The notes under the pieces were generated by a model. That model did no database searches. It saw only the letters and a list, made by a program, of their open reading frames with translations, and was not told the DNA's origin. The position numbers were made by a program, and so were the translations under genes. Positions 14,350 through 40,769 of a stretch of 64,000 nucleotides of DNA are shown here, one piece after another. The DNA lies in NCBI GenBank assembly GCA_008632985.1, contig QPGO01000087.1, forward strand, positions 186,001-250,000, read 5' to 3'. The DNA is from Psammoneis japonica. Lineage: Eukaryota. The stretch's first letter is position 1; each line of letters starts with the position of its first letter.

Positions 14350-17300
14350 CACTCGGACCGATTTTTCGTCACCGTCCGCTGAAGAATCCGCGAGAACTCA
14401 CGGTGTTTATAACAACAACGGGATTAGAGTGCGCCGGGGCGGGGACGTACGGGCGGCGACATTTCAGTCGGGCTTGTGCATCCCGTGGGCGGACGGCATT
14501 CAAGACCTGCCCCGCCCGGGGATGGACGGAAAGGGGGTGGATGACGGAGGGCATTCAACAATTTCTGAGCCAGGGGCTGAAAAGGGATGGATGGGTTTCA
14601 ACACCCATTTCATTGACCACTCAGTGGTTGGTGATTCCAGACTTTTTCGTGTGGGTCGGCAGGCCAGTGGGTTGGTCTGTGGGTTGGTGGGTCGGTTTGT
14701 GTGCAACAACTCTGTCACCATTTTAAAGTGTGTCCCTTGTTGCTGCAAACAGTGTGAGCAGTTCAGTGGAGTTGGGTTGTGGCTCAAAATTGGAGAAGGA
14801 ACATTCGGTGCATTGGAGTTTGTGGGGACTTCCTGAAAAATGACAAATTCCCTTTGGCAGGTCAGTGGAGCTGGTGTTTTTCAACAGAGTTCAAAATTTG
14901 GGAAAACCAGGGTTGCAAAGCCAATGTGGCACAAGCTGCACCTGAAACAGTCATGTTGAAAAAGCTGTGTCAAGCAACAAGTGACATCAGCATGGCAGCA
15001 ATGGGAAAAAAGAGTGTCCGTGTTGCATGTCACCACCTTGCCACAGCCCTGAAGCTTGCGCGAACTGTCAAATCTGACAGCTGTTCACATTGCTGGTGGC
15101 ACTGCCACTCTGCCCTGCATTCTCTCACACACCTGCTGCACAGCCCTGCCACACTTTCCCATGTGCATGGGCAGTGATGCCATTGCCAATGCCACCCAGC
15201 CAGCCTGGTTTGCTGTGCCAGTCGGGACACCAGAAAATGTCCTGGCATGCATGAGGGGCAGGCACTGGCTGAAGAGTCCATCCCCTGGAAAGCACAGCCA
15301 TTGCTGCAAATGAGCTGGTGAGTTCCTTGGGATCTAGAGCCACCAGTGGCAGGCAATTTATCTCAGAAGATCAGCCTCTTGGTGCAAATGGGCGCAGCAC
15401 ACATGACCAAACAACAGGATGGATGGGACTTGTTTGCCAACTCCTCTTCATCAGATTTGCAAATTTGGTGCTGTTGCCCAGCTGGCCAGCTGGCCTCATG
15501 GGTGAACAGGTCATCAGTTTGGAGGCTCAGCCCTGGCACTGCTTGAGGGCAGCTGTGCTGAAAGTGCAAAGCACTTTTCCATACAAAAACATGCTGGCTC
15601 CATGCCAAGCAAATGGCAAAGCCATGCACTGACCTCAAAGTGAGTTCAACACATGCAATTTGGTGTGTTTCAGTGCAAAATGATGCACGCCAATGTGCTC
15701 ACCCACACACACACACAAAAAAACACAAAACACAACACTGCAACACCGCTGATGCTGAGAGCATGAAAACGCCAATGCCACACCAACCAGCACACTCTGT
15801 CAGAGAATGCAACCTCTCCCAATCCTTTTCTTGCATCTGAGGAAAGTGGCAGCAAGAAAAACAAAAGATCAGTGCAGTGCAAGCCAGTGTGCATGAAGCT
15901 CAAAAAAGCAGACTGAGCATGATCTGCTCAATCGCAGCTTTTGTGCACTGCAGAGCTCACAGCACAACCAAATGGCTCAGCTGAGCTCCAACGTTCCCAG
16001 CGATGCTCAACCAAGCATCAAATGTGACCCTGGAGTTCAGATGAGCGTGCAAAAGCAGTTTGCGTTCTTTTCAGACTTGGGCAAAACTGCCAACACCATG
16101 TCAGCAGTGTGACAGTCCTGCCCCTCTGGTGTGCACCAGAGATGACACCTCAGCAGACTCTGCTCAGGCCCTTGCCGCCTGTGGTGACAAAAAGCCTGAG
16201 AAACCAGAAAAAGAGACAGAGATGAGGTGTCCCAGTCATTGCAGCAGATGCTTCCTTTTCTTGCACTGCCAGAAAATGCCAGTGTGCACCCGGAAGTGGG
16301 GGCTGATGTATGTGCAAGAACATCACTCATGAACTCAAAGGACTCACTCTCTGTTTTTGTTTCTGGGCTGGGGCCAGGGTGCACTGGAAGCCAGGAGGAA
16401 ATTCTTTTAGGGTGGTGGTGCAGTGCACATGGCAGCAGCAGTGGCTGCAATGGCACCCCCCATCTCCACTCTTCCTGCCTTCACAGCAAGCGTTTGTTGA
16501 AGAAGAGGGCAGCTGGCTCCATTCTTGCCCATTGTCCAAGCAGGAGAAAGGAAAAACTCTCAGGCTGCTGCTGCTGCAGTGCTCTCACTGCTGCTGCTCC
16601 CCCACACTGCTGCTCCTTGTGATTCTGTGGGCATTTGCCCAGGAGCAAGGAGGAGCTCTTGTTGCACCACCTGGAGGAGCAGTGCTGTGACAAGCTGCAA
16701 AGTCTGGACATCCCAAATGCTGTGGAATTGTGTGTGGAGGAGCATGCCAACATTAGAGGGCAGTGAGCAAGGTCAGTGCAAGGAGGCTCTGATTTTTGAA
16801 ATCAACCATGCACTTGGAGCATTGACAACCACAGCCAAAGCCCAGCCAGGAGATCAACCCAGATGTTGCTCTGGACAGGAGGGCAGAATGTGGAATGTTG
16901 GCATTGGCCACTGCAGCATCAACACAACATGAGATTGCATCATTTTGCCCTTCAATCTTGGCCAACACCCAGCTGTGGGGTCACACAAATGGCAAAAAGA
17001 GTGCTCCATGTGAGACTTTGGCACCATCTGGCATGATGGCAGTCCTCACATTGTTGTTGTCCTCTGACCATCATTTCAAGACAGATGCAATGGATGCCAC
17101 GGACATTTTTGCACAGAAAACTTGCACCCAACCCAACCACTGAGTGGTCAATGGAACCCCAATTTTTGTTGATTTTACAAAAACTCAAACTGGTTTTTGC
17201 CAGAACTCCCATCTCCACTCCTCACTTTGGTGTGATCCAGGCAGGCCTGGCATGTTCTGTGTGTGCACCCTCCTGTGTGTGTGTGCTTGCACTGGGGTGC

Positions 17301-20300
17301 AGATTGCAGATTCTAGATTTTTCTTTCAGAACAAATGCAGATTTTTGCGGCCCACAAAATGTTGGTGTGGATTCTCTTGTTGGAGCAGGTTGTTTTCTAT
17401 GATGATTGGGATGGCATTCATTGACAACTGTTCAGATGTGGGTGTTGAGACACTCAGAGAAATTTGTGCCTTTTGTGGCATGACCAAAAGATCACAGAAG
17501 AAGCAATCCTCACTTTGGTTTGCAAGCAACAATCTCATGAAAATGAACTTGACAATTGACACAGCCAGATCTCAATCCACAACTGCCGCTGTGAGTTTTG
17601 GCACCCAGGGCTGTGGCCAGAGCACTGCTTTAATTGTTGGAACAGAGAAAATGGACATGAAGGCAACCAGCAGCAACTCCACCAATCCCAGCTGCAATGT
17701 GTGCCACCTTTCTCACTGCTTGTGATGTGGAACAGCATTTTCTTGTGGTGTTGACATTGTTGTTGATGAATGAGCTGCTTGAGATTGCGTTGATGCCCAT
17801 CTCATTCCACAGCAACTCCAGGGTGCCATCTTTGATCTTGCATCAAATTTGACCTCAAAATGTTGGCAAACAGAAACCTTCTTTCTCAATGACAAGAACA
17901 AACTGTTTCCATCTCCAAGAGGTGCTGTCAATGAGCTCTGCACACTGTCCAAAGTCAGCAACATTTTGGCTGTCCAGGAAGATGCCATCATTGACAATGG
18001 TGTGCTGCCCAGCCATGGAGGAGTCTTTGCAACCCTCGCACATTCCAGTGTCTTCTTGTTTGCAAAATTCCTTCTGTCAGGGGCCCACAGCACATTTGCA
18101 ACATGTGCTTCAACTGTGATCTTTGCAAAAAGTGTTGCAACACTGGCACACACAACAAGGACCATGCGTTTGAAAGGCCAGTGTGAGTCATCAGCTCTTC
18201 CACACCTTTCCTGCTCTTGCACAAGGAGCCCCCATTGCACACAAGCATTGCTTGTGCTGCAATGGAGCCAGTGGGAAATGCAAGTGTGCCAGTGATAAAA
18301 GCAAGTGCACAGTGGCTCATGACTCCACCTGCCAAGGTTGCCTGCCTCAACATTGGCACCAAAGAACCTTGCTGCAAGTGTGCTGAGTGCTGGGATTTTT
18401 TTCTTTGCCAGAAGTGCTGTGCAATGCCAAAGAGCATGTGCTTGCAAATGGCTTTCTCAAACTGGCTGGGGTCAACTTGCAACCAGTTTCTGTGGCTCCT
18501 TTGTTGTTCTCCTCCTGAGGAAAAACCAAGTCCTTCACATTCCAACAAGAACACCATTGTTCCTGTGACCACAGCAGTTGTGGAGATCATGACAGACAAG
18601 ACAACAACACCTGGCATCAAAGCTGAAGTTGTGGCGACACTTTTGCTGGGGCAAGAGGTGGCACTCATTAACTTGCCAGAAGCAAAGAGATGAGTGGTTG
18701 ACATCCCAAGGTTGTCCCAGAAGGAGAGTTTGAAGCCAGAGAGAACATCCAAGTCTCCTGCAAACCTTTTGCCAAGGAGACATTGGCCAAGCCAATGAAT
18801 CTCATTGGAAAGGACATGAGTGGTGTCATCTGGCAGTTGCCAGCCCTGATGGCCAAGTTGACCTTGTTGGTGGTGTGCAGGAGGCACAGCTCTCTTGGAT
18901 GATGGGCACTGAAAATTGAGCCCAAGAACCTTTAAGTCATTGAAGACATCTGAGTCTTGAGTGGGTGTGTTGTGTGACATGTCAAGTTGTTCCAATCATT
19001 GTGCCAATGGGCAAGGTGTCAACACAATGTCATGGTGTCCATCAGCTCATTTTGCATGCTTTTGCAGCAGAGTGGCTCTGTGGGTTTCCCACTGTCTTGC
19101 TGAGGCAAGATGCCAAGATGCCACAAAATTAATTTTGGTTGCACTGGCCCACTTCTGCAAGTGGAGCTCTGATGCACAATGTTTGACAGCCCACCAGCCC
19201 ACACCTCATTGACAAGGCACCCAGTTGTGGGTGTGATGAGGACTGAGGCAGCATCAAGTCCACTCACCAGAGATGGACAGCCTCCAGTTTTGCAAACCAC
19301 ACCTTTGGATTTCTCCAGGCAACCACTTCTTGGCAGAGCAGGTGCAAACTGCCCTTTGCTTTGCAGTCTGGTCCAAACCCAGTGGTGCAGAGCTTTCCCT
19401 TTGTCTTGTGAGCATGAGCAGATGAGCCACATGACAGATGCAGACATTTCAAGAGGAGTGTGTGGTGCATGTCACAGCTGTGCTGTGAGATCACAACTTT
19501 CTGATCTCCACAAAGCTGGTGAAAGCCTCCTCAAGGTTGTCATGCTGTGCATTGACAAAAGTCAGTGAAAACCTTTGGGTTCTTCATCACCAGGTCCCTC
19601 CAAGATGGTGTCATCCACCATGACATGTGCTGGAGAGTCCACCTCAAGGGTGTTTGGGCACCTTTGGAGAGAACACATGGCACAAAGCTTCTGCCACCCA
19701 CAAATGTGGGATCATGTGTGAGCAGCCAGGTGCACATCTCTGACAATCATGGTGGCCAAAATGGACACAAGATCCACCCAAGATTTTGTTGATGTGCTGT
19801 GGTGGCAGCATGTCTGAGGACTCAACATGCTCATGAAAAAGCAGTTGCCACTCTGCAACTCCAAAAGCATGAGCTCAATGTGATGTTTCTTTCCTTGCTG
19901 GAGTCCACATTTCTGTCTGGTGCCTCTGACATGCTCAAGAAACTGCCAGTGCAAAAGATTGTTTTGCTTGGCTTTCAGCTTCTTGTCACTGACACTCCAA
20001 AGCAACCATGTGAACCCTTTGATTCTGACTGAGTCTGCTCTCACTGGATGATCATGCTTTCAAACTCTGCCAAAAAATGCTTTCTTCCTTGTTTTTGGCT
20101 TCTTCAGCCTTTCTGTCACAGAGCTCAACAAGTTGTGTCTGTTTGTTCTACAATTTTGTCTGCTTTTCTTTTGGAGAGGTTGACTCAGAGCAGGCAATTT
20201 TTTTTTCTTTGACAGTGCAGATTCACTCTCCTCCTGAAGCTTCATTGTTTGATCATCATGAAGTGTGCTTTGCTGTCCATCCCACCTTGAAGCATTGCTG

Positions 20301-23300
20301 CTGCACTGCTTTTCTGTTTTTCTTTGTTGGGGCAGTCAATGACCTCCAACAACTTTGCCACTTCTGCTTCACATTTTTCTGTGCAGCCACACATCTTTGT
20401 TCTCTTTCCAAGAGTCTGATCCCTTTGTTTTCTTGAAGAATTCCATGTGGCACAAGAGCAAACTCAAGTCAAGATTGAGGTCATCTTTGGGGAAGTGATG
20501 CAACAGATCTGTTGGCAATGAGAAGGCTGAGCTTCAGCTTCCTCCAATTGAGAGAAAGTCATTGCAGAAGCCCCCAATGAACACCAGCAGAGCAAGATGC
20601 AGCACTCTGTGATGAGGTGTGTCTCTTGGAGGCCTGGCTTGCTTTTCCACTGTTCACATCAGCGCCATTTTGCATCTTGCCATCAGGGCCATTTGAAACA
20701 TCATTCTTGAAGATGCCCGTGGGGTCAAGAATTCCAGTCAAGCAATGTGACCCCATCATTCTTTTCTTGAGCAGAAATCTTCAGTTCCTCAACTGAGAGG
20801 ATTGCAAAGAGAAACAGCCACTCTGACAGAATGCTCACAATGTCCAGAATGTCCTCTGGCAACCATTCCTTGAACAACAACATGTCAATGTGATCTGGAG
20901 CTTGAGCAATCCCCAGAGGCAAAGATTTCTGGTTGTGAGAGACATTTGCAATTCTCCCAAAGAGCTGCAGGAATGAGTTGTCATGACATGTCCGTTGGTC
21001 CTCTCCTGTGATCAGCCAGCAGACTGTGACAGTTTGTGAGGATGAGGATCTTTGCACTGGTGTTTGCTTGCTTCATCACACCCTTTGTGTTTGCCATGTT
21101 TGCAACGTGCATCTTGGCCACAATGTTGTCCCAAAACCCTGGCCAGCAGCAGCAGGGCATCTGAGGTGCAGATGTCTTTGATGTTTCAGCATGACCAATC
21201 TTTCAGTGGATCGTGTCATTCCTGCTTAGACACAGGGAGTCATTCCCACTTACACACAGGGATCTCTGTCACAATCAACATGACCTCATCTCATTGTTCC
21301 CCTTCTGCCATCAGCTTTTTGCTGTGATGATGAGCTTTGCAAGGCTTTTGATGCCTTTCTTTTGAAGGGGCTTTTCTGTCATGTTGCAACCAAGCAAGTG
21401 TCTGGCTGCAGTGCACTTGCCACAACCAGTGTTTTGTGGCACTGGAACAGGAGCATCTTTTCCCAAGATGCTTGGTGCACTTCTCACCCCATTTTCCATT
21501 CACAGTGGTGGCACAGCAATGTTGTCTGATTTCTTCTGCTCATGTGGGCAGCATGTGGTGTTCTGTCATGTCATTGTCAATCTCTGCTTCTGGCAATGCA
21601 GTGGGCTTGACAACAAATGTCTTCATGGCTGTCATCATGTTCTGCAGTGCTCACAATGCAGATTTGAGATTTTGGCTCTTTCCTCCCAGGATCAAGAATT
21701 TCATGATGAGTTTGATCACTTTTGCTTTTTACAATGCAAGATGTGTCAAGAAGCTTTGAAGCTTTCCCACAATTTTTTCATCCTTGCTGTGTCCTGTTTT
21801 GGCAACATGGACGCTGCTGTTGTTCAACGACATGACATTTTTCACTTGACTTGGGCACAACTTTTTTCTCATGAAACTTGCTTCTGCACATTGCAATCAC
21901 AGCATGCATGAATCATGATGACTGGCACTGAGCCTGAATTTGATCAGAGTCTCAAGAGGTTCTGGCACTTCCTTCCAATCTTCCAATGCCAAAAATTGAC
22001 CAACTTTGGCTTCCAAACCTGCACCCATCTTTCAAGAGTTGCCAAGTTGCCCCCCTCAAGTTTGTTGGTGTCTTTCTTCAAGCTGGCTTCAATGTGGTTA
22101 ACAGCACCTAAAACCTGCTCACTCTACAGTGCAGCCTGGCTTGATTTGGTGATCCTGGGGCTGGCAGCATCCCCAGGCTGCACATGCTGGCAGATCTCTG
22201 TGCTGTTGTCACCACTGTTGAGGATCAAAAAGGGGGCCCAAGATCCACTTGCCATCTTGTGCCACTGCTGCTGTTGGCTCTGTGGTGGCATTGTCATCCA
22301 CTGAAACTTTGTCAAAGGGCTGCAGTTTAGAAAGCAGCAGGAATGAAAAAGAGTGACTGCACAAATCACTGAGGAAGTGTTTTGGTGATCAGGGCAGCCA
22401 GCAAGTGGCTTGCAAGTGGCATCTGTTGGTGGTGAAAGCACAGGCTCAAGTTGAACAACAGGCCTTCTGTCATCTTCTCCACTCTGCAGCAGCTGACTCC
22501 ACTTTGAACAGAATGCAGTCAACTCCAGCATTGCAGCTGTCAGCAGAGGCAGCCCAAGCTCTCCAGGAGACCCAGTCACCAGGACACTGGCCCACATCCT
22601 GCCTGTTCCCAGGCCATTTTTGGCAGTGAGTGCAGAAGGTGGACTGCCAAATTTGGGTGGGAGCAAAGTGTGGGTAGAGTGCCTGATGAATGCAAGGGGC
22701 CAGATGATTTGCAAGCAGAGAGCATGAGCTGCAAGAGAGCATTCATGAACAAAAACAGCACATGACAGGCTCAGCTTGGGGGCATGCAGGCAGCAGAGCA
22801 TTTTTTTTGAAGCACCAGCAGCCAACAGGGTAAACGACATCAATGTTGACTTGAGTGAATGTGGCCACAGCACTGCCAGCTTAAAGGAAGTGAGCAGAGA
22901 TGTCTTTTGGAAGAGAGCTCCAGCAGTCAGCTGGGACCAAGGATGGCAGCAGCAGCAGCAAGGTGCAAGTGATGTTGGAGGGCACAATGGGTTTGAAGTG
23001 GTGCTGGTGCATGGTGTGAAGCAAGGGGCAAGGTGTGCTGGTGTGCTGCCAGAGATGAAGTGTGCAGTGCACCATGGCCAGGACCAGTTGGAATTGCAGG
23101 TCACCACTGTGGCCGCATGCCAATCACTTTAGCCAGTGTCTTTTGAGTGGTGACCTCCAAGGTGATGCAGGTGGCAGCCCACAGTTTGGCATTGGTGGCA
23201 GTGGAGACAAGTCCAGGCAAGCAGGGCTGGCAAGTGGTTCAACTCAGCACAGTTGGGAGGGGGCTTTGTCCAGCAGTGCATCACATTTGCTGGGGTGGAG

Positions 23301-25750
23301 CAAGGAGAAAAAAACAAAGGTGATCATGTCAGCATTGCACAAGCCATGGATGGTGCACTGGCAAGTGCCACGGCACTGATTCTGCAGATGGCATGAGTCA
23401 AAGTGGGGCAAAAAAAGCAGCAAGCATCAAGTTGGAAAAGCTGAGTGGCATCATCTTCTGTGCTGCTGTTTGCTGGGTCAGGTGAGCAGTTGTTCTTGAG
23501 AATCAGGGCAGCAACAATGCCATCAATGTTTGACAATGGCCCACAGCAGAGAGGTGGTGCTGGCCATGCTGGCAGAGGTGTGGCAGAGCTCTTGCAGTGC
23601 CAAGGCATTGTGTGCTGCCAGGTTGTTGGCATTGTCCTTGGTGGCATGCTTCTCCTGCACATCAAAACAGCTGGCCCTGAAATCCTGGTGCAAAAATCAA
23701 AACAGATGGTGCTGAAATCCTGGTGCAAAAACCTTCCCATGAGTTTGGCTGAGGCCAAAGTTTGTGATGGTCCCATGTGAATTTGATCTCATAAAAAAAT
23801 GTGGCAGAGATGATGGAGTCAGGGAACTTGGTGTGCCTCAACATGGGGACAGCTTGCCCCAAGACTGCCATGTCTGCAGACCTCCTGCATGCCACCCAGA
23901 TTTTGCTGGGTGTTGTTTTGCTCTTGGTCATGTCATCATCAGTCTTTTCCAGGTGCACTGCTTGGGCATTGGCTGCAATCATGTGCTGTGCCCCTGCCAC
24001 CAGCAGCACTGCAGTGAGATCTTGAGTGTCATGCAGGGTGCCAAAGCAGTGTGGTGGCAGGCACAGAAAATCTGGGAGGGGGGGGGGGGCACTCTTGCAG
24101 GGCATCAATTGGAGGCTGGTCACTGTGGAAGATTTTGGCTGTCTCATGGCACAACCAAGTGATTGGGGGCATGCCTTCACTGACAATTGCTCATTGCTCC
24201 CTGGCAGCATGCTGCACCGGTTTCTAGATGTGAGGCCAGCAGAGCCAAAAAGAAGCACAAGGTCGTGCTTGTTGGGTGTGAAAATGGGGTGACTGGCATT
24301 CATCACTTTGGTGTCTTGGTCTGCAGGGTTGAAGCGACTCACCATCTGCTCCTCTCCTCTGGGACTCCTCCCAACAGTTGATCAAGCAGCTTGCTGTGGA
24401 GGGATGCTGCAGCAACCAAAACCTTGCAATTTTTTCTGTGCAATTGTGCATTGGGTGTGGTGTGTTGTCACGTTGTCCATTGCGCACAACCATTCAAGTG
24501 AAAAAAGTTGAGCGGCCCACACAGGCACAGAATTTTTTTCAGCTTTGCATTTGAGGGCAAAATCTGCCTCTGTGATGGTCATTTGCCATCTTTCATTGTG
24601 ACATGTCTCATTTCACTGGGTCCAATGGCCACAACCCTGTTTTGTTTGACAAGTGCCCCACAATGTGATGTCAAGAAAGGATGAGTTGGACAACGATTTG
24701 AGTCAAAAATCTGACTGAGAAGATTCTGCAGATTGCCACAGTGTTGGTGCAATCCCAGCTGCTGCAAATGTGCAACAATCACCTGAAAGCCCTGCAGACT
24801 CCTCTGTTGTCAGCAGTGATGAAGGCTCTCTTCAAGAAGCAATGCACCGAGTAAATTCGTCATCGAGCCGCCTTGACGAACATGCGACAACAAAGAGAAC
24901 TGAGACTGAATGGAGTTTTGTCTTGTCACAAACAAAGCAGGTTCCCATGGTTTCTTGCTGGTTTGAATTCAAATGACATGCCCCACATTGTAAGTTGTTG
25001 ATTGATTGTGTGTCTTGCATTGTGTCTCACAAACACTCAACACTTGTTTCGTCAAACCTTTTTTTTTTTTTCGAAAATTTTCCCACAAACAGCATGTCGT
25101 CCGAGTCGAGTGTGTCAGTGCTCCTGACCCTGTGTCTTAAAGGCTTTTGACAGCAAGGATCAATGAGCCCCTCTTCACTCTGAAGCTCCATGAAAACCTT
25201 CTTGGCCCACTTGTCACTGACTTTTGCTGCTCATCCAAGCTCTGCTCCGGCCCGCCCTCGTCGCGGTCACACAGCTCCTTGCACTTCTCCACCAACTCCA
25301 TCTTCTTCAGCATGTCGCAGGGAATGCCATCAGACGCACACCACCACTTGCATTGTGGGACAGTCCCAAGACAGCGACGGCATGCGAAGAAATGCCGGCC
25401 ACAGCATTGTCCCCTTCAAAACAACACAAAAAACTCGAGTGCTTTGTGCGGACAATGCAAGAGTCTCGCTGACAAATTTGAAACAAGTTTTGAAGTGACA
25501 ACATTGATGTTGACATAAAGCGACAAATGACGAAAGCCTTTGATGGAGCGAAAAGAAGGCCGCATTGTGACAAAAGACGGCGAATGACCGCCGAGGCAGA
25601 ATTCGCCCTTGTTCTCACGAAAAAAAAACAGTGACATCGCGTCGGGAGCTGCGCGAAAAAAGTCGCTCGAACGGTTTCAGGTTGTGCGCGATTGGATTTT
25701 AGATTCCAGATTGTGGAGTAGCTTTTGGAGATGACGCAGCGGCGACCCAT
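14350..25750 (-). mobile_element. Heavily mutated transposon block 1 (TpA/CpG-depleted), tentatively KDZ (Kyakuja-Dileera-Zisupton)-like; boundaries approximate
   Basis: No intact ORF; strong compositional contrast with flanks. Minus-strand remnants in KDZ-like order at ~18.6-17.4 kb: CLVC.D, GGVM, HWP....VCASVAT, PWL, FHE, LNT/TSEQL (frameshifted). Family call is weak. Confidence 0.5.
23661..23730. repeat. 35-bp tandem duplication
   Basis: atcaaaacagctggccctgaaatcctggtgcaaaa followed by atcaaaacagatggtgctgaaatcctggtgcaaaa. Confidence 0.85.
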
Positions 25751-26330
25751 ACTCGGCCTTGTTTGAGCTATTCTTCATCGTTTTCGTTCATTGAAGACAC
25801 AGATATTACTTTTATAAGGTATAATTGTTGGGTGAGGCCCTTGGTTTGGCGAGAAACGGAGTTTTCGTTGTGTAGAAATCAAAACATGGGTCTTTTCCCT
25901 GTTGTCTTAGCTATTTTTGAGCGGCAAAACCCATACTTTGATATTTGTTCGTTCCTTTCACTTCCTCTGATGACGCTCATTGCCATTATCGACTCACCAT
26001 TGTCAAGAAAAGTTTTTCCTGTCTTGGGTGTGCTGTGTGTTCGATCTGTGGCGAGAATTATTACACTGTCACATTGACACGAAACACCGCAAAATCAGGA
26101 ATTGTCACGACCCATACTTTGATCTGCATTCATTCAATACACCTCCTCTGTTGCGCACCATTGATGGTATCTCTTTGTTATAGATACAAAAAGCATCTCC
26201 TGTCTTGTGCATGCTGTGTTTTGATTTGTGGCTAGAAATATCGGTCATACTCGTGTGGTCTCATGTCGGCATTTTGTGACTAACACCGACCCGCGTACTT
26301 TGATGTTTGTTCATTCATTTCGTCTCTTTA
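25745..26330. repeat. Degenerate ~180-bp tandem repeat (3-4 units)
   Basis: acccatact-like anchors at 25745, 25929, 26110 and 26289; tcctgtcttg..tgctgtgt..gat.tgtggc.agaa.ta shared at ~26017 and ~26198. Confidence 0.7.
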
Positions 26331-26661
26331 CTCACACTTCTTTGATCTAATCTCTTCTATATAGTTTCGAAAGGATCATGCTGCTTTGTATTTGCTTTTG
26401 ATGGGGTCGGATCGCGCGAAAGCCAATACTACGACAAGTTGACAGTTGACACGCATCAACCCCTCCGGCCGGCAGAGCCACGAAATAAAGGAAGACGGAG
26501 CACATTGCACTATTGAACATGATGCCAAGTGAGCATCACATGGAAAACGCCACAAGCGCACTAGACGACAACACAAAGCTTAATGCATGACTGTGTAATT
26601 AAATGAATGTTGATGCAAAACGCAAAACCTCCCTTGTTCCCTTGGAAAGGAACATGACGGT

Positions 26662-29247: not shown

Positions 29248-30038
29248 TAACTCAGTTTGTTGAAATGAAAGCTTAGGTATTTGTGAGACTTCCTTTCACG
29301 GCGAATCAACGAAATCATGCATCATAGGGTTCGCATCGGACTGCCGCGAATGGAAGCATGACTGAAATCAATCGCGGTTATCTTCCTGCTAATTGTCGGA
29401 AGGGCGTACAGTCAGTATCAAGGAAATCGCACACATGATGTGTCATTCGCGGTGATCTTCCGGACTATTTTCGGAAACAAGCTTGTTGCAGTAATCGAAA
29501 CATACGGTGCGGTGGATAGAAAAGCTCACTCTATAGGAGAGAGTAGAACTACTTCTCTACTCTCTACTCTAGCTAGAGTACCGGTAGAGCTAGCTCTACT
29601 CTCTCTATCTAGAGCTACAGTAGTAGAGAGTAGTCGTACCTACCTCGTAGGAGTACCTGTACTCTAGCTAGCCCGAACAGGACTGGAAATCGCGGATTAG
29701 ATTCGATGCACAAAGATTTTTTGAAGGTCGAGACTTACTCTGCTCAATTTACTTCTTAGTCTTGTTGCATTGATATACCGTACCGATAAAAGAGAGATAA
29801 ATAAAGTAGACATTTCAAATAATGTCCTATGCACGTGAAATCGACGTAGCCGATGACGTCCAAAAAAGTTCAAAAAATCCAAAAAAATTCGGAAGGCGCA
29901 TTCCAATTCATTCCCATGATCGATTCGATCTTCGATCGCAGCGACATCAAGAATATCAGGTGATGCGAATCGGTGCTGTGCCATCACACCGGTACAGAAT
30001 CCATTGCTCTGTCTCTTTTGAAAGAATAAGGTGTCAAA

Positions 30039-32198
30039 ATGGCCACATTTGCGCCCTCATACCAACAAGGTTCGCATGCCGAAGTCTCTGATGCTGAAGC
30101 ACGACTCCGGCTCGCACGACATGGTCGCTGCCCGGATCACCCTGACATTCAGCTGAAGAAACGAAAGGGCATAAAGTGGAAGACAGTCAAGGAGGAGTGC
30201 TATCGCTGTAAAGAAGAATTCAAACTCAAGACACAATGCTGCCCTGTCCACCCTTTTGTCATTATGAGCAAGGCAAAGAAATTCCGTTGCGGCATGATGA
30301 TGCGTCACCTCGTCTGCCCCCTTTGCCTCGAGGGAGAAATCTCGGTAGGCAAAACGTCGAAGAACGAGCTACGAAGGAAGGTGGACCTCCTCACCAGACA
30401 ATATGCTGAGCTTGCCTCTGATGCACGCTTCAAGTGCGACGAAATCGAGAACCTCCAATCCGAGCTCAGGATTCTTGAGGGCAAATTAAACACGGGAGTG
30501 ACGGTAGAAAGTACGGATCTCCTCGATCAGCTCCTCGAAAAGGCATTGCCGATGATCGAGGATCTAGTGGCGGCACACGAACGTACAAAACCACCCGAAC
30601 CGGTCGATCACATGCAAACCATACGAGCCAACATGATGAAGCTTGAAGCCCGCGTCAAGGTGTGCGAAGGTACTTCCCAGCGTGTGGTGGCCGATGCCAT
30701 GCATGAAGTGTTGCAGCAGCTGGAATCACTTCGGAATGATAAAAACATGCTTGCCATTCAGTCAGAGAAGCAGCGACAGGCGTTTCGAAACGAACTAGAT
30801 GAGCTACAGACCGATCTTGGGATCGTCAAACGAACCATGAAAGAACTTCCGGCACAGGTGGAGTGGAATACAGATACCGTCAAGCAGCTCCTCGAATCAT
30901 ATTCAACCTTGGAAAAAGAATTAGAAAGTAAGTTTGCCGAATATGATAGCTTTATTGCATCTCAGAAGACTTTCAATTCGCAGATTCGCAACCAAGTGGC
31001 TGCACTTGAGACGGCGGTGGCGCAGGAAAAGAATATCACCGCAGAACGACTCGAGGAAATGCAACGGCAACTCGATGCCATTGCCAAGTCGACGACTCAT
31101 ACATTCCAACCGAAAAACGTCATGATGGTCAATGACATGTCGGATGAAATGACAAGGCTTAAGCAACGTATTGAAGTACTGGAACTTGAACTCCAACGTC
31201 GGCAGCCGCAGTGTCCTTCTCATGTTCACCCTGTAAAGATGCCGGTGGCACAGGTGGATCCTCTCACGACCGATAATGAAGTTCCTTCCTCCTCGAATGC
31301 ACCGACCTTTACTGCCACCGTCCCGAAATGTACGCTCAAACGGCACAAAAATCCCGTCACTTGTTGCACCGTATTTGCCAATAACACTCGAGCGCTCAAT
31401 GGTAGCTGGTGCAACGCGATCGAGGTCTGGGACTTGGTGGATGAAACGAACATTGCCACGCTTGAAGGACACAAAAATGGTGTCAATTGTTGCACCGTAT
31501 TTGCCAATGACTGTCGTGCAATAAGCGGGAGCGGCGACGGAACGCTCAATATTTGGGACTTGGTACATCACAAATGCATCGCCACTCTCAAAGGCCACTC
31601 AAGTTACGTCACCTGTTGCGCCGTTTTTGCCAATGACAGGCGTGCGGTTAGTGGAAGCTGGGACAAGTTCCTCAAGGTTTGGAATTTGGAGAATGGAATG
31701 TGCCTCACCACTCTCAAGGGACACACTGGTTACGTTACTTGTTGCGCCGCATTGGCAAGCGGCACGCGGGCAATCAGTGGGAGCTACGACAACACCGTAA
31801 AGGTTTGGGACTTGTCGAATGGAGCATGCCTCACTACTCTCAAGGGACACAAGCGGTCGGTAACTTGTTGTACTCTGTTTGCCAATGACACCCGTACCCT
31901 CACTGGTAGTTTGGACGCAACGCTCATGGTTTGGGACTTGTTGAGTGGGATACACCTTACCACTCTTAAGGGACATGCGGGTTCCGTATTGTGCTGTGCT
32001 GTGTTTGCAAGTGACACTCGTGTCATCAGCGGGAGCCGTGATCAGACCCTCAAGGTTTGGGACTTGAAGAAGCAGGTGTGCCTTGTCACTCTCAAGGGAC
32101 ACACTGATGATGTCACTTGTTGCACTGTGTTTGCCAAGGACACTCAAGCAGTCAGTGGGAGCTCAGACAGCACTCTCAAGGTTTGGCAGCTTGCTTAA
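30039..32198 (+). CDS. Intronless protein: two CxxH...CxxC modules, long coiled coil, seven highly similar WD40 repeats
   Basis: GRCPDHPDIQL...CYRC and CPVHP...CPLC; heptad-rich middle; 7 x 42-aa TLKGH..VTCC.VFA.D.RA.SGS.D.TLKVWDL. Confidence 0.92.
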   Translation: MATFAPSYQQGSHAEVSDAEARLRLARHGRCPDHPDIQLKKRKGIKWKTVKEECYRCKEEFKLKTQCCPVHPFVIMSKAKKFRCGMMMRHLVCPLCLEGEISVGKTSKNELRRKVDLLTRQYAELASDARFKCDEIENLQSELRILEGKLNTGVTVESTDLLDQLLEKALPMIEDLVAAHERTKPPEPVDHMQTIRANMMKLEARVKVCEGTSQRVVADAMHEVLQQLESLRNDKNMLAIQSEKQRQAFRNELDELQTDLGIVKRTMKELPAQVEWNTDTVKQLLESYSTLEKELESKFAEYDSFIASQKTFNSQIRNQVAALETAVAQEKNITAERLEEMQRQLDAIAKSTTHTFQPKNVMMVNDMSDEMTRLKQRIEVLELELQRRQPQCPSHVHPVKMPVAQVDPLTTDNEVPSSSNAPTFTATVPKCTLKRHKNPVTCCTVFANNTRALNGSWCNAIEVWDLVDETNIATLEGHKNGVNCCTVFANDCRAISGSGDGTLNIWDLVHHKCIATLKGHSSYVTCCAVFANDRRAVSGSWDKFLKVWNLENGMCLTTLKGHTGYVTCCAALASGTRAISGSYDNTVKVWDLSNGACLTTLKGHKRSVTCCTLFANDTRTLTGSLDATLMVWDLLSGIHLTTLKGHAGSVLCCAVFASDTRVISGSRDQTLKVWDLKKQVCLVTLKGHTDDVTCCTVFAKDTQAVSGSSDSTLKVWQLA
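31330..32195 (+). repeat. Coding tandem array of ~126-bp WD40 units with high nucleotide similarity
   Basis: Recurrent actctcaagggacac, acttgttgc, tttgccaatgac, aaggtttgggacttg at 126-bp spacing. Confidence 0.9.
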
Positions 32199-35100
32199 CA
32201 GTTTAGGATGGTTCACCCAGCTTCACAGTTTAGATTGCAATGCAAAACTTTGATTGAAAAAAGACAAAGGACTGACAATGTCAGTGTGATGTTGGTTAAT
32301 TTGGTCATGACTTTTTGTTTATTTCCACTCAAAAATGCCTGCTGTTGAGTTATCCAAACTGCACCTCACGCACAGCAAGCTTTCACACGGGTGTTTGGCA
32401 CTGTGACCACAGCAAACCATGTGGTGACATGCTGCCCACTCTCTTAGACTCCTCAAGGCAGCACAAGTGGCAGCTGCCACTGAGAGTGTGGCCTTGGTGC
32501 ATGGTGTCTTGTCACCCCTGTTGACATCCACCACTGCAAATTTGGGTTTTGCAGCTGCTGAGCAGGTCTGCTTTGGGATCTTCTCAATCTTTTTTGCTGG
32601 GTGCATTGTTTTGTCTTTTTTTGCCATCTTGTCTTGTTGCTTGCACCTGCAAGAAAGATTTTCTTTCCTCTGCTGTTGCATCTGTTTTTTCTCTGTGACC
32701 CACAATGTCTGGATGTTGCATGCAAGGGAAGGGTGTTGGCATGCTTGTGTAGATGACTCTTGACAGATGAGACATTTTGGGTGGCTGCTGGGCAGATCTC
32801 CTTCCAGGTCTTCTCAGTTTTTGCTGTGCTGGCAGTGCTCTGTGCTTTTGTTGTTAAAGATGGCAGGTTTGCAGCACTGCACACTGCTTTCCTGCCTCTG
32901 GGTTGGCATGCTTGGGTGCATTTCACAGGCCTCGAATGATGTGCTGCTGGTGTGAAAAAAGACATCAAAAGTTGTTGAACAAATGTCCCAATGACTCAAA
33001 GTCATGCAGAAAGCTGTGCTCATGACATGTGGCTTGTGACCAAAAACATTGATGTCACAGCACAGCATTGCAAGACCCCACCCAGAGCTGCAGCATGCCT
33101 TGTGCTGTGAAGGAATGCTGGTGGTAGAAATTTGGGCTGGGTCATGACAAACCACAAAATGGGGGACAATTTTGCAAGGCCTGCTGGGACAAACTTCAGT
33201 TGCAGCAGTGCACTTGTGCCCCCCACTCTCCCTGCAGGTGATGGCAGCAGGTGCCAGAGCTGGAAGTGATGTCATCAGCTTTAAAGAAAGACACCCAGCA
33301 AATTGGAGAACAGCAAAAGAAGTTGCCAGAAGAGCAAGGAATGCACCAAGGCCAGTGTGCTGAGCTCAGATGAGAGGGTTGGTGTTTTGCCTTTCTGCTC
33401 CCCCCCTCCTCACTGCAGTTAAACTTTTTTGGCTGCAGGGAGGGAAAATACATTTTGGTTGTTTTGTGCATCTGAGGGCAGGGTGAGATCAAACCCAACA
33501 TGTGCTGCTGCCCAACATGCTCACCAACTTGTGATGCATCATTCTTGGAGACATTTTAGCCCCCCTTGCCGTGCACCACCCCCTGATTTGCCCCATGAGC
33601 CCTGCACACTGACACATCTTGGGTTTTGTTCTGAGCTGCTGTGTTGCCAGCTTGAGAGCTCAGAGACAATGTGAGGAGTTGCCATGCGGTGCATCACCTC
33701 CCAACACATCAAGAGGAAAAAGCAAAACTGTCAGGTGCTGATTTGGTGGATGTTGAAGCAGTGGACATGAGGAGTCAGAAATGTTGTGATTTTTTACCCC
33801 ACTTGCCATTGACAAAAACAGAGTCTTGTGGTGATTGGAGAATGTGGGGAATGCAGCATTTGTGACTCTGTGGAAGTTTGCAACAAATGACCCCACAATG
33901 GGAAATGGGGTCTCTTTCAAAACAAACTTTGCAATCTGGACACATGCTGCAGTTTGTCCAAATGGCAAACTTCACATCATTGGAGGAGACTTTCAAGCTT
34001 TGGCCTGTGAAAAGCATGCTGTGACAAAACTTGGCACTGTCTGACATTTTAAAGCCATGTTGAGCAAAATGTCATGGAAGAACAAGCAGCTTGTGTGATG
34101 CAGGCATTTTGGCATGGGCGCAGTTGTCGATCACTGAGCCCTCAACTTCACAGCTTCAGCAGGCTTTCTCAAACATGGAGAAGTGCATGTGTGTGTTTGC
34201 TTCTTTGCTGGTGTGGGTGTCACTTCTGCTGGAGTGATGCCTTCTGCCATCCACACATCCATGCTGCCCATGAGGCAGGCTGAAAAGCTGCCAGAGAAGT
34301 GCTTTGTGAGCTGATCTCCAAGTTTCTTGCACAGTGCTGCTCTCCAACAGTTGAGAAGGGATGAAGGTGCTGTTGGAGGAGAGAATCTTCTGCATGCTTC
34401 TGTGCTCACGTGCCTCAGACATGGCTGGACAGGGCATTTTCCAGCTCAATGCCAACAACTTGACACAACAGAGTTCAACAGGTGCAGGGTCACATGATCG
34501 CACGACACAGAGGAGGCATTTTGTCTCAAAGAATCCCCCTGCCCTCAAGAACACATTTCATGTCACTGAGCAAGTGGCTCTGGTTGCAAACCTTCTGATG
34601 CTTGATGCTGCTTTGTTGTCAATCTTCTTCAAACATTCTCCCCTGCAGAGTGTGCTTGGAGTGGGTCACCCTCTGCTTGCCGTGTGGCATGACACCAGTG
34701 CACGGCTTTGGACACATGAATCAACTCTCATAAAATCTGCTTCCTCATTGCATGCAATGATGAGGAAGCACTTGTAACTTGCTTGTCAATTGAGTGACAA
34801 GATAAAATTCAGAACAAGGTCAACAACTTTTTGCTGAAATGCAGAGTTGAAGAACTCCATGCAAAAAGGCTGTGAGTGGCATGCCAAAACAGAAAGGAAC
34901 CGGCAAAATTGTAGAAAACATCAGCCAGTCTGTGGAGGCAGGTGTGCACCAGAGGTGCACAAGCATCATCTGTTGTCAGCCGCACACACATTTGCACACT
35001 CAGCATGCACAAATGACAAAACGATGAGGTGGGTCACATGCACAGATCTTCAATGCAAGATCTGTCACAACGTGCTGCACCCACAAGAAATTTTGTGGAG

Positions 35101-35677
35101 CAAAATTGAAATTTCCACAATTTCCCTCCACAAACGCATTCAGCCCAACACACTTGGCATCCACATTCTGTCACACCCAACAACACTGTCACTCGCATTG
35201 ACGTCAGACTGTCTGCATCTGGGACACCAATGATCCAGGTGTTGCACTGGCCGTCAAGATTTTTTGAAATAAAACCCGACATGTTTTTCATTCAATCCAA
35301 GTTCATGCTGATTTGTCAAGTCTGTGTTTGTGAAACATTCAACAACAAACATCTCCATCCCCCAATTTAACTGTTTGCCCCCCCTTCCGACAAGCCTGAT
35401 GTGTTTGTTTAATTTTGTGTTAATTTCTGGATGGTGTGTCAATCAATTTTCTGCATCAAAGTTGCCACATGCATTCATCAAGGTAGACTCCACTTGCCTT
35501 CTAAATTTTCTCTCCCTGCCCATTCCACCCTTCTGTCCATGATGCCCCCCCCCATTGCACCTTTTTTCTTGTCCTCTGCTTCCACCCTGTGTCACCAAAT
35601 CTCCAAGTGATTGTTGCTGCACATGCCATTCCATTCGATTCTCTTCTTGACACTCCTTTGTCTCTGTGCATTGGCCA

Positions 35678-38600
35678 TGTCATCTGATGGTCTTGTTTGT
35701 CCTTGGTGCAAACGAGCTGGTTTCTTGTCTGAGTGCGGTCTCAGTGGGCATGTTGCAACCAACTGCCTCTGCTCTGCCATTCTGACCAAGTCTTTTGGTT
35801 GTCCTCATTGCGGACAACATGGTTTTGACTCAGAAAACAATGTGCAGTGTCACCCATCTTGGCACTGCGCTGCTGCATCTGTTCTCCCTTCCCCATTGAC
35901 ACAGTTGTGCCACAAAACCCAATCATCTTCCCTGTCCGGTGGGACATCTCTTTCCTCTCATCCTCTGGATTCCGCCTCCGTTTCCTCCCTTGGGTCCAAC
36001 ACCGACAAACCCAAATGCCCCCATTGCCGTGCCCCCTTTTCCAACATTGCCCTTCATCCACAGAAGTGCTTGCCCTGCCATGAAAAGGAGGAAACGTCCC
36101 TTTGCCGGTTTGCCACATCTTCAAATGCTGCAAATTCATTGCCCCCTCCAGACGACGAATCACTTGATGACCATGATGATCCTGCTGTGTTTGGTTTCAC
36201 CAATGATGATGAACCCCAGCCTTCCCTTCCCAAAGTCCTTTGGAATCCAGATCCACCTCCTCCCACACAATCTGACAACTCTTCTCCAGCTGGCCCTCCC
36301 TCTGCCAGAAATGGACTGCACCCACCCTCCGTCAGACGCTCTGGTTGATTGCGTTCTGCCGCCAATGTTGCTGCCGCCAGTGCAGCCACCAAAAATGCCC
36401 GCCAATTTGTTTTGTTTGCAGATGATGGTGTGTCTGCCCTTGGAGAGGACAGTCCTGTGAATGTCCATGAGTTCATTGGAGCTGAACATCTTGATGGCAG
36501 TTGTGGGCCCCCCTCAATCTCACGTCCAACAGAAGAGCCTGTTCCTCCTCCCCCCAGTGTTGAATCCATTTCGGTTTCTTCCTTTGATCAACACAATCCT
36601 CTGGGACCGGCATGTGATGTCGCCCCTGATGAGGACTTTGATGCACCTCCAGTCCACTCACCCAGCATTGCACCCATGGTGCATTTGCCACATCTGTGTC
36701 ATTGGTCAGGTGTTGCAATTGACTTCATTGACAAAGCAATGAGAATTTTGCATGTGAAGAGCATGCAGAAAAAAGATTGGACATGTCAAAGCCCCCCATC
36801 ACAACCGCCGTGGCAATGAAGCAACTCCTTGGGCCATTTCCCAATGTCCCTCTCCCCCGCACTGCTGCTGTGATGCTTGAATGCAACAATCCAATGCAGC
36901 AGCAGAAGGATGGTCCACAATGTCGTCACTCCCCACCTTTCCCAGTTTGCAGTCTCACCAAGACCCTTCAGGATCTTTTCACTGAGCCAGTGTTCCGTGA
37001 TCTTTCCAAGTTGCAGGTTAATCCAAATGATGTTTGGTCACCTCATGAGCCCCCACTGATGGTGATTTGGATTCCAGCACTGGCCAGGCTGATGGTGTTG
37101 AGATGTTGTTTCCAGATTGTCCTGGTGGCTGGTGATTGTCCACTCAAAGTCAAGACATGGGTGATGGAGAGTGGCAACAACATTGCTCCAATGCCAAGGA
37201 AATGGCCTGTGATTTTCACGTTCACCTTGTCAATTGTTCGGACAAGACCAGAGTCAATGCAGTCAATCCTCAAGGGATGGAGCCTGCAAAGCACTCACTC
37301 ACCATGATTCAAGAGGACTCACACCGTGACTGTTGTTGTTGGTGTCCACTTGGTTTCATGCCCAATTTGGACAAGAAAGACAAGTCTGGGCACCTTGTTG
37401 TTGCCAACTGTCACTGCATTCTCAAGGAGGTGCTCTGTGGGCTGCTTCATTGCCAGGCAAATCTGCCCATTGTCCATGCAACAATGGGCAATCAATGCTG
37501 CTGTGTCAGAGCCACAATGCATTGCAACTCCCTGTTGGGGGACATCCCCAATCAAGAACGCAGTTGTGGCAGAGTCATGAGCCAAAGCAAGACCAAGCGG
37601 TTGTCTCACAACTGCCATGTGCCCTCTCACCTTTCTGATGATCCCCTCCATGCTTGCCAATTCCTTGACCAAGCTTTCATTGAGTTGCTCACTGTTGCTG
37701 CATTGGGTCCAGATCCCAAGGATGACAACAGTCATTGGCACCAGCATGTTGAAAATGTTTCCCGTGAGCATCGTGCAATGACCGCCAAAAAAAGGTTGAG
37801 AATGAGCTTGCTTCATCCCTCATTTGCCGAATGACCACATGCTCCAAAATGTCAAGGAAAGTGTCTGGACAGCACGCAGTGGACAATGCTCACTTTCCAC
37901 TCAACATGGGTGACAACCCATGCAGTGCATTTGGAATGACCATTGCTGACACAATGCATGCAATGGAGGTGGGTGTCATCCCTCAAATGATGGAGGCAAC
38001 AGTTGGAGAGATGTCTGCCAAACGGAAAGAGGAATGTGACCAGATTGCATTGAAATTGTTCTGCACAGCCCGGTGTCGTCCAGGTCAGAGACATGACTGT
38101 CCATGCATTTGAGCCAATGAGGGACTTTCCACACTCAGCCAACTTGCGTGTGACGAGAAGATGGGCAAGCTTTTTGCACTTGCCATCATTGGTCACACAC
38201 ATGCTGGCAGAAATCTGCCAGAAAAGAGGTGCGATCCATCCTTTGACAGCAAAAAGAAAGAACTGCTGACAGCTTTAAAGGAAAGAAGCAACAAGAAGAA
38301 CAGTTGACCAAATCGTCAGAGAGTGAACCCAAGGAAGAGGACCCTGATTCCGTTGAGCCATCCAATGAACAAACAGGCAAAACACACACCACCCCTGTTG
38401 ATGAGAATGTGCCTGATGCACTGCCTAAAGAGACATGGTCTGATGTCCCCTGCGATTCATCCAACTTCCATCACTGCAACTGTGTGATGCAACAGATGCA
38501 TCGTCATGGCCTGTTGGAATTTTGGGAACCATTTTCCAATCAGCTAGATGATGATCGTTTTTTGTTGCACCATGAGATTGCATGCTGGGATGAAACAAAA

Positions 38601-39957
38601 TCATTGAGACAGAAACAATGTGCTGTTGAGACTTCAGCTGATCAATTGTTGACACCTGGACTGCATGGTGTGGTTGGCGGATCAGTGGATGATCGTGACA
38701 ACTTTGCAAGACAAAATTGCCAAGCACTGTCATTTGTGCTGAAGCAGAAAACAAACTTCCGGACTCCTTCACGATGCTCGTAGATGACAAAATGACAGCA
38801 GAAAAATCTGTGGATTGTGGAGTTGATGAGTTGTTGGACTTGTTGCATCACATGCTGCTTTTCCATTTGTTTTGCATTTGTGGGAAGGAACTCTGTGGAA
38901 AAACAGGAAAGGTGGATTTCAAGTGCAGCGTCATCCTGCTTGTGTTCAAGACAAAATCATGCCTTTGCCATGCAATGAACACTCACTTGTTCTGGACTGC
39001 CAAGTTCCATTCTTTGCTGCATCTCATTGTCCACTCTTTCCTTTTTGGGCAGACCATAAATTTCTCTGCCATGATTGGAGAGAGTCACCTGAAATTCTGG
39101 GCCAAGATGCCAGCAAAAACTTGCCAGGTTGCATTGGGTGCAGACAATTTCTTGGACCAACTTGTTGTTTGTTTGCATGACATGGCAGTGCTCAAGAAGG
39201 CACACAGCCTTCTCATCCCTCCCACGGTTGGTCAGGTGAACACATTTTCCTCTGAAGAAAAATTGATGCACCCTTTGTTTGTTGTGAACAGAATTGCCCA
39301 AACTTGCTGCCAGTGTTCAGGAAGCAACGAGAACAGGGTTGTCCCGGAAACGGCAGAGTTGGGCTCCACCCCGCCACTGCAGTTTTTGTTGTTGGCAATG
39401 GAGGAATTGTCAGCTGAGCATGATGAAGTTGTGGTTTGCATGGAGTTTGCCCCACCAGACAAAGGGATTTTAATGCGGGCATGCCTCAATTGTGACAACA
39501 ATGGGTTGTTGTGTAATGCACCCAGGGTCTTGTACGAAGAGGGCGCCGGTGAGAAAAAAGGCACCCTTTCATGCTCCGTGGTTTTGTGTCAGCTGATGAT
39601 GGAACAACACCACTTGCCACAGGACAGTCATGCAAGGAACAGACAAAGACATTGCATGACATGTCTTCCAATGGTGTGGTCGAGCACTGGGAACTTGAAA
39701 CATCAACTGTTGGTCATGGCAGAGATTCTCAGATGATCCCAAAATTTTGCTGTGCAAGCAGAGATGTAATCACAACGGGGTTTTTTTCTGTCCTGGTGCC
39801 CAACAACTGCAATGGAGAAACCATTGAAATGGTGGGATGCTTGAACTCATTGTTGTTTGTTGTGGACAGACACAATGACTGGCCGAAACATTTCCTGTCC
39901 AACAAAGTGCTCCAGCTTCACCTGGACAAATGCCAGAAATGGGAAAATGAGAAATGA
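35678..39957 (+). pseudogene. Plavaka-family transposase pseudogene
   Basis: N-terminal Zn finger CPWC..GF.S..GLSGH; SDKT......EP.......W.PLGFMPNL; LLGD......CG; ADTMHAMEVGVI; WTAKFHSLLH....FG..NF....GESHLKFWAKMPAKTCQ. Broken by frameshifts and TGA stops. Confidence 0.8.
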
Positions 39958-40031
39958 CAACGTGCCTTGGGAAAAAGGAAACATTCACAATTGTTTTGTG
40001 AGCAAACAGACATTGTTCGAATGAGTCAGCT

Positions 40032-40562
40032 CTAAAAGTGTGTTGACTCATCTAAAAGCATTGGTTGGTCGAGGTGGTTCTGTGTCCCAATGTCATCAAA
40101 AAGCATCTGCCCAGTGAAATTGTTGAAGAAAATCTTTGCGTTGTTCTGATGGTGCAAACGGCACACTGTGCAATCTTCAGAGAGGAAAACCTGATTGATC
40201 AGGGCAGGATGATGACCGGGAGAGTCAGGCCAGATGGCAGCACACCAGTCAGAGCCCAAATCATGACAAGGATGGTGGAACTCAATGCTGCAGGCATCAC
40301 AGGAAGGAAGAAGCAAACAACAGGCAATCGCAAAACCAGCACAACCACCGCCAATGTCAATGAAATTAAAAGGGCTTCGAGCATGAGCAGCAAAGAGAGC
40401 AGGGTGACAAATGACCTTGGCAGACAAGGCAAAGCTTGCCGCACCACCATGTGATTCCACACCGCCACCAGCAAAACGACCCATTTGATGATTGGTCGGC
40501 GGCGTGTCACTGCAATGCAGGGAACGCGCGTTCCTACAATGGGAACGATTCACAACAACCAC
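40032..40562 (-). pseudogene. DOT1-like class I SAM-dependent methyltransferase relic
   Basis: ES(H<Y)G, FIDIGGG(C<Y)AGF motif I, SIEF post-I, IFFNNF matching DOT1 IFVNNF, in DOT1-like order. Confidence 0.6.
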
Positions 40563-40769
40563 ATCTCAGTGACAACATGATGCTTCAGTGCCGTTGGAGG
40601 ACCAAAAGAGAATGTGTGAAATTGTGGAGGGGTGCGTTCCCTTGTGCACATGCACACGCATCATTGAGAAGTGGATTGGATCAGTTTGGGCAACAGAGAG
40701 AGCAGTTGGAGAGAGATGGCACAGCTCAGGGAAGTTGAGGGAATGATTGATTGAGATGTGATTGAACAA

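Follow-up and report, generated by a model that had tools for sequence, protein, structure and literature searches.

Rapid loss of TpA and slower loss of CpG in transposon-rich DNA of the diatom Psammoneis japonica: evidence for two separable processes

A stretch of 64,000 nucleotides (hereafter the window; G000:C86:186001-250000, contig QPGO01000087.1) from the 91.4-Mb assembly of the diatom Psammoneis japonica was analyzed. It contains two blocks, at ca. 14.45–25.7 kb and 32.0–43.9 kb, in which CpG and TpA are both scarce and CpA and TpG abundant, with unchanged GC content. In the core of block 1, CpG amounts to 2.3 and TpA to 2.9 per kb, versus 56.8 and 38.5 in the flanks. Host genes identified with Pfam lie in TpA-normal DNA, with the exception of one gene end; a transporter gene located in the flank finds its best named relatives among raphid pennate diatoms (Craspedostauros, 83%; Nitzschia, 80%; Epithemia, 79%). 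In the block interiors, none of 71 open frames of at least 105 amino acids, and none of 10 longer block frames, had a Pfam match, and the margins of the blocks consist of dispersed repeats. A perfect 69-bp tandem duplication was observed in normal DNA at window 50218-50355. The blocks, their margins and the affected gene end are as follows.

14449..25699, unstranded: block 1, TpA-poor extent (2.9 TpA per kb versus 38.5 in the flanks).
14546..24847, unstranded: block 1, CpG-poor extent, nested within the TpA-poor extent.
24848..25699, unstranded: right margin of block 1, where TpA is erased and, by comparison with homologous copies, about half of the CpG persists (26 of 56 ancestral CpG lost).
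14449..14604, unstranded: left margin of block 1, preceding the first detected repeat (start near 14605), with 11 CpG and 0 TpA versus 3.4 expected, a weak deficit.
32038..43718, unstranded: block 2, CpG-poor extent (core with 13 CpG and 4.5 TpA per kb).
43719..43904, unstranded: right margin of block 2, made of two repeat ends (to 43777 and ca. 43850); 18 CpG and 3 TpA versus 5.7 expected, not significant.
31988..32198, plus strand: final WD40 repeats of a host gene whose frame is open (30030-32198), located on the left edge of block 2; depleted in TpA and CpG.

A sequence-only reading of the window had singled out the right margin of block 1 as DNA that keeps many CpGs and has very few TpA. 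Positions 24840-25700 hold 45 CpG, where 48.9 are expected from the window flanks and 2.0 from the block core, and 5 TpA, where 33.2 are expected from the flanks (Poisson p 1.5e-9) and 2.5 from the core; in flanking DNA every 860-bp window has at least 15 TpA. The imbalance was confirmed at this margin, and the change points for CpG (24848) and TpA (25700) have 850 bp between them. The same imbalance had been described for two further margins, where it is much weaker. Between 14450 and 14700, 14 CpG accompany no TpA when 6.0 are expected with the high GC allowed for (p 0.0025), but the 97 bp between the change points at this edge contain 0 TpA versus 1.5 expected (p 0.22); at block 2, neither positions 43700-43900 (3 TpA versus 6.4 expected, p 0.12) nor the 186 bp between the change points (p 0.18) gave a clear deficit. 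The end of a high-copy repeat at window 14605-14906 marks the left end of block 1; the depth of a short-read run, X1, is ca. 2100 in this bin, and joints skip 302 bp. The fourth edge of the window, which had gone uncited, is reversed by 314 bp when all TpA are counted (CpG 32038, TpA 32352). All seven TpA in 31990-32460 lie in resistant contexts (TTAA, TTAG, TTAT), one of them being a stop codon, and when susceptible TpA only are considered the TpA border lies outside by 50 bp.

The right margin of block 1 is formed by a single 1.2-kb element, abutted by a further repeat.

24474..25697, unstranded: chimeric element, internally deleted and non-coding, with terminal inverted repeats (ends approximate); the left repeat lost most CpG and the right one keeps them.
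24472..25064, minus strand: family-A part, corresponding to one end of a 2-kb inverted-repeat element; full copies of this element occur on C128, C119, C14 and C102.
25086..25676, plus strand: family-B part; the change is polarised by the C4 copy, in which TpA is kept, and TpA products are shared with the copies on C25 (17/19) and C46 (12/14).
25723..26408, plus strand: abutting family-C repeat that retains most of its TpA, with 17/29 kept versus the majority state of young copies; outer limit of the TpA-poor block.

The family-B part is the end of an element related to family A, and 24474 to ca. 25697 is regarded as one chimeric element because the C25 copy joins the same two parts. No target-site duplication was identified for this element, and the two open frames of it that were tested had no Pfam match. 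Loss of TpA affected 43 of 46 sites overall, and CpG was lost at 28 of 31 sites in the left half, on the block side, versus 26 of 56 in the right half, on the outer side (p 6e-5). A 41-nt inverted repeat in block 2 (window 34965-35005 and 43780-43820, 8.8 kb apart) presents the same asymmetry, with CpG gone from the inner arm and kept in the edge arm. In the family-B half of the chimeric element, the agreement of TpA products exceeds the expected 0.6 for C25 (p 0.005) and C46 (p 0.04) and amounts to 7/20 for C30; in the family-A half the match to C25 is only 12/18. The loss of TpA in the right half, the only half for which the products indicate it, appears to have been mostly inherited from a parent copy, via transposition or some other duplication. 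Since these changes are common to copies elsewhere, they would predate the insertion, and the margin cannot therefore show a TpA footprint: it documents a CpG gradient well and a footprint of TpA loss poorly. As the low TpA of a margin may go back to the parent copy, composition alone cannot map such a footprint.

The direction of change was assessed in aligned copies of the three families. The family-B copy on C4 has 23 TpA in 602 bp and seven other copies have 1–4; at its TpA sites the other family-B copies have CA or TG, depending on the copy. Relative to it, the C10 copy carries 28 TA>CA or TA>TG changes and no TA>CG (counts including 120-bp flanks), and because C10 is without CG at these sites while keeping 45 CpG, the ancestral state is TA. 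The C4 copy (L003:113-2120), spared the TpA erasure that its seven relatives underwent, lies in TpA-normal surroundings. Changes of CA>TA and TG>TA are rare in aligned copies. Among four full copies of family A, 56 columns are mixed between CA and TG, none of the copies reading CG there, and the pairwise agreement of products ranges from 13/39 to 42/65, that is, near half. This near-half agreement and the mixed columns indicate that the family-A copies were converted separately after insertion.

The speed of both losses was estimated from the same alignments. In five family-A copies, 59–86% of TpA (40/68 to 76/88) and 14–24% of CpG (13/91 to 32/136) were lost, and 2–8 private non-YpR transitions were found per ca. 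1090 columns. The TpA:CpG rate ratio was 5.5–8.3 in all five, and on a rough estimate the excess of TpA change over other transitions may be about a hundredfold. The family-C copy on C92, considered with 3 kb of surroundings, lost 25 of 28 TpA and 2 of 35 CpG (p 4e-12) in comparison with its close relative L019, with CA>CG at 1 of 26 and TG>CG at 1 of 56 sites. The rate ratio varies, being ca. 7 in family A, more than 30 in the C92 copy and low in the C4 copy, and since it is not constant the two processes are not locked together. The aligned copies and the counts for the C92 copy therefore indicate that the TpA and CpG processes are separable. Eight young family-C copies, several of them 91–96% alike, keep 26–31 of 43–47 TpA columns; L025 keeps 2/40 and L027 6/46, and both lie in or beside depleted domains. 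As far as these alignments reach, they establish a dependence of TpA loss on position, the young family-C copies keeping most TpA and the two in or beside depleted domains losing it. A sharp internal border was observed in the family-A copy on C101 (L098, L095), in which only 4 of the first 25 scored TpA were converted and conversion is nearly complete thereafter.

The relative position of TpA and CpG borders was surveyed in 660 kb (659,997 positions; 350 kb of C86, 110 kb of C10 and 200 kb of C4), amounting to 0.7% of the genome and picked near known copies. Both dinucleotides are low in 35.1% of this DNA, TpA only in 12.7% and CpG only in 0.6%; TpA loss accompanies every CpG-poor segment, and five TpA-poor segments have no CpG-poor part, with no case of the reverse. 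A 49-kb TpA-poor stretch, alternating between CpG-poor and CpG-normal, was observed at G000:C86:300580-349999, where it runs up to the limit of the analyzed DNA, 331 bp short of the end of the contig. At 54 of 74 edges the border of TpA depletion is the outer of the two (median offset 127 bp), with an offset greater than 300 bp in 19 edges and a reversal of more than 300 bp in 3; reversed edges number 20/74 on all TpA and 15/72 on susceptible TpA. A shared sharp border, used as null, gave 51% of edges with TpA outside and a median of 1.5 bp. By simulation, one shared field tapering over 150–300 bp, with TpA changing 7-fold faster (a ratio taken from the same data), gave 86–90% with TpA outside and medians of 91–181 bp, with 9–14% of reversed edges, which is below the observed proportion. 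Five offsets of 2.5–4.4 kb were not produced by the taper and would need younger elements beside older ones.

Profiles of TpA and CpG drawn separately over many borders had been proposed as a check. Borders were placed using one half of the sites, drawn at random, and profiles were computed from the remaining half, a held-out procedure that replaces the biased anchoring on a single dinucleotide. The profile ran 0.84, 0.55, 0.42 and 0.24, down to 0.16 by 800 bp, for CpG, and 0.50, 0.30, 0.17 and 0.10, then flat, for TpA. Both dinucleotides begin to fall near the same border, and the floor is reached at 200–300 bp by TpA and at ca. 800–1000 bp by CpG. In four family-A copies converted in place, 28/54 TpA were lost in the outer 200 bp and 175/194 inside, and 14/143 CpG in the outer 200 bp and 54/248 inside. 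The corresponding rates, outer versus inside, are 0.26 versus 0.89 for TpA (context-adjusted) and 0.10 versus 0.25 for CpG, so that the outer rates are about a third of the interior ones; this evidence for a shared taper comes from four copies of one family. The length of segments showed no link to their CpG loss (rho -0.05, 45 segments).

The sequence-only reading had proposed that TpA conversion is either faster or has a wider footprint. The first of these options was borne out by the rate ratios of family A; the second is not required, since speed combined with a shared taper is enough for the typical offset, and a wider TpA field is unproven. A TpA mutator with a wider targeting of its own, guided for instance by small RNAs or histone marks, would reach element ends and unmethylated young elements, with CpG methylation in domain cores only. 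We regard this as unlikely, although several observations are in line with it: the five TpA-poor segments without a CpG-poor part, the level of TpA over the 100 bp beyond the neutral border (0.50, versus 0.84 for CpG), which a wider TpA field would give likewise, the absence of TpA from 14449-14604, outside the first detected repeat (p 0.034), and the loss of TpA with almost no loss of CpG in the C92 copy. Against it, both rates taper jointly at the ends of family-A copies, the stretch of the C101 copy that was spared TpA loss also has little CpG loss, the shared taper reproduces the median offset, and speed alone explains the young copies depleted in TpA only.

The sequence context and the strand of the changes were then compared for both dinucleotides. 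In doubly depleted DNA, retention of TpA ranges from 0–1% in ATAT, ATAC and GTAC up to 63% in TTAA, and CpG loss is nearly context-free (10–26% retained). Counts of A>G by strand-resolved 3' context, in copies not all of which are independent, were 125/241 (52%) for TAC, 117/314 (37%) for TAT, 54/216 (25%) for TAG and 58/277 (21%) for TAA. TAG, the context that ADAR favors, is thus disfavored here. Both strands were changed, with 14 TG and 11 CA in the C92 copy and 12 TG and 16 CA in another copy. Strand-coordinated (processive) editing was considered and rejected, alike neighbours numbering 163/329 in family A (163.6 expected) and 100/203 in family B, at or below the permutation means.

These features bear on the proposal that A-to-I editing of an RNA intermediate was fixed by reverse transcription, which we consider very unlikely. 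Matches to PF02137 were found at two loci, and ADAR-type enzymes are described in a preprint as preferring U before the edited A (10.64898/2026.01.13.699255); but the elements end in inverted repeats, as DNA transposons typically do, and each copy is changed to a similar degree on the two strands, strand runs being absent. Scarcely any credit is due to the idea that TpA disappears as a by-product of CpG deamination, or through base composition, selection or chance. It can draw on the under-representation of TpA in the flanks too (o/e 0.57), on the weakness of two of the three cited margins and on the slight arithmetic dependence between TpA and CpG ratios known in vertebrates. However, absolute TpA density is down 13-fold at unchanged GC, TA>CA or TA>TG is found site by site in copies that keep CpG, TpA is not removable by CpG deamination, and the copy that lost nearly all its TpA and almost no CpG refutes it, so that the independence of TpA conversion from CpG deamination, as proposed from sequence alone, stands.

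An assembly or base-calling artefact at modified bases is equally improbable: the assembly may itself derive from run X1, but the contigs of this run match 14608-24089 with 3 differences, none in TpA, its listed pieces in the margin have 0–1 differences or gaps, and related copies have the same products (29/29 identical in two C12 copies), unlike miscalls. Contigs of this run span the whole stretch, and among the 8 long pieces listed 4 letters and 1 gap differ; of the 8 read-versus-window differences whose context was checked, none is in TpA. An ongoing TpA polymorphism in the reads was also considered and rejected, the 3 differences of block 1 falling outside TpA. A second run, X2, has no cover on the blocks, which was not taken as evidence.

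The gene end at block 2 is the one exception among the host genes identified with Pfam. Positions 31988-32195 contain 0 TpA versus 6.8 expected, and the last WD40 unit has 0 CpG, the other six units having 5–10. This suggests that both processes may leak from block 2 into the WD40 gene, the frame of which is still open. One contig of run X2 spans 29914-32223, with a GT..AG joint present elsewhere.

Taken together, the data make it probable that two mutational chemistries of different speeds act on the same silenced, transposon-rich domains, and the geometry of the borders narrows the mechanism to one silenced domain and two speeds. Within the compared copies, the alignments establish for the TpA step its direction, its context and its occurrence on both strands, and in family A its action after insertion. 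A fast process would convert TpA to TpG or CpA, on either strand and site by site, about twice as often with a pyrimidine after the A, and would approach saturation soon after an element is captured by a silenced domain. A slower process would convert CpG to TpG or CpA, accumulating over ca. 1 kb inward from the edge; its pattern is apparent in the copies, and its cause would be deamination of methylated CpG. Silenced chromatin is the presumed target. Both processes would weaken near domain edges, as seen in four copies of one family, and a visible margin would arise only from unsaturated CpG decay. The element at the right margin of block 1 would have arrived with its right half erased of TpA, after which CpG would have disappeared chiefly from the part lying deeper in the block.

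Regarding the chemistry of the TpA step, deamination of DNA adenine by a TadA/ADAT2-type enzyme recruited to silent chromatin is our tentative first choice; a miscoding modified T or A is a less favored possibility, and some other chemistry is rated slightly below that. The fingerprints left for such an enzyme are the preference for TAC and TAT over TAG and TAA, the lack of strand runs and the sparing of repeats in normal DNA. The genome contains 27 matches to C5 methylases (PF00145). One locus (L135) encodes an ADAT2/TadA-like protein with an HAE...PCxxC motif and a MafB19-deam match at 5.5e-30; it is of the housekeeping type expected in any eukaryote, and so says little. No match to a TET/JBP thymine oxidase (PF12851) was found in the genome, and a control likewise gave 0, so that absence is not established. 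A cluster of related C5 DNA methylase genes was observed at L126, L127, L128 and L132 (C301, C297), with 4–7 TpA and 39–47 CpG per kb and some with stops; these genes may be mobile or foreign, and the frames neighbouring the cluster had no Pfam match.

A broader scheme can be outlined, which as a whole we hold to be doubtful. Diatoms would possess a dedicated, chromatin-recruited enzyme that rewrites genomic TpA as a defence, acting in a burst on newly silenced transposons before CpG decay, triggered by position and not by duplication, leaking into genes and sharing a common origin with the system of Bigelowiella natans described below; erased non-autonomous elements would still be copied, and the combined TpA and CpG scars would date silencing and insertion.

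Three known systems offer a comparison. Repeat-induced point mutation (RIP) of ascomycete fungi makes TpA from CpA, is triggered by duplication, requires a RID-type methyltransferase and a sexual stage, kills transposon copies and can leak into genes. The process described here is likewise a dinucleotide-specific hypermutation that ruins inserted transposon copies and may leak into neighbouring genes. Unlike in RIP, TpA is removed, not created, and duplication as such is not the trigger: most family-C copies keep TpA despite having close relatives, and loss occurs only in or beside TpA-poor domains. Deamination of 5-methylcytosine, the second system, gives CG>TG or CG>CA. The CpG changes observed in the transposons of this pennate diatom are of this type and affect both strands, as would be expected from the DNMT5a-dependent CG methylation of transposons reported in Phaeodactylum tricornutum (Hoguin et al. 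2023, PMC9998398). Removal of TpA is beyond the reach of such decay, and methylation in Psammoneis is itself presumed from the pattern of CpG loss.

The closest parallel is found in the chlorarachniophyte Bigelowiella natans, for which a preprint describes de novo A>G and T>C mutations only at TpA in integrated viral regions, with ADAT2 proposed as the enzyme, at a de novo rate raised ca. 1000-fold and active only in some lines (Mettrop et al., bioRxiv 10.64898/2026.01.13.699255). The TpA signature of P. japonica matches this hypermutation in the signature features tested: change is concentrated at TpA, it affects both strands and it is confined to foreign or mobile DNA. In both organisms, A>G and T>C at TpA yield TpG and CpA on both strands, the action is local, and TpA-poor, CpA/TpG-rich clusters are left. 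No viral region was identified in the diatom DNA, the frames searched in the block interiors having no Pfam match. The differences are that new mutations were observed in B. natans and are deduced from copy comparison here, and that the diatom shows near saturation over ca. 48% of the sampled DNA, on inverted-repeat transposons, superimposed on CpG decay and with a 3' pyrimidine preference and a taper at the edges. The main text of the preprint mentions neither 'diatom' nor 'CpG' (10.64898/2026.01.13.699255), and no report of TpA erasure in diatoms was found in the literature searched, outside which most subscription journals lie. What is added here is a comparison of 74 borders with null expectations, the evidence for a shared taper, the 3' context resolved by strand and the inherited nature of TpA loss at the right margin of block 1. 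The results indicate that a diatom carries an A:T-to-G:C mutator independent of the decay of methylated cytosine, represented otherwise, in the literature searched, by a single preprint on algae of a different lineage. Should the enzyme be a natural DNA adenine deaminase, its significance would reach well beyond algae.
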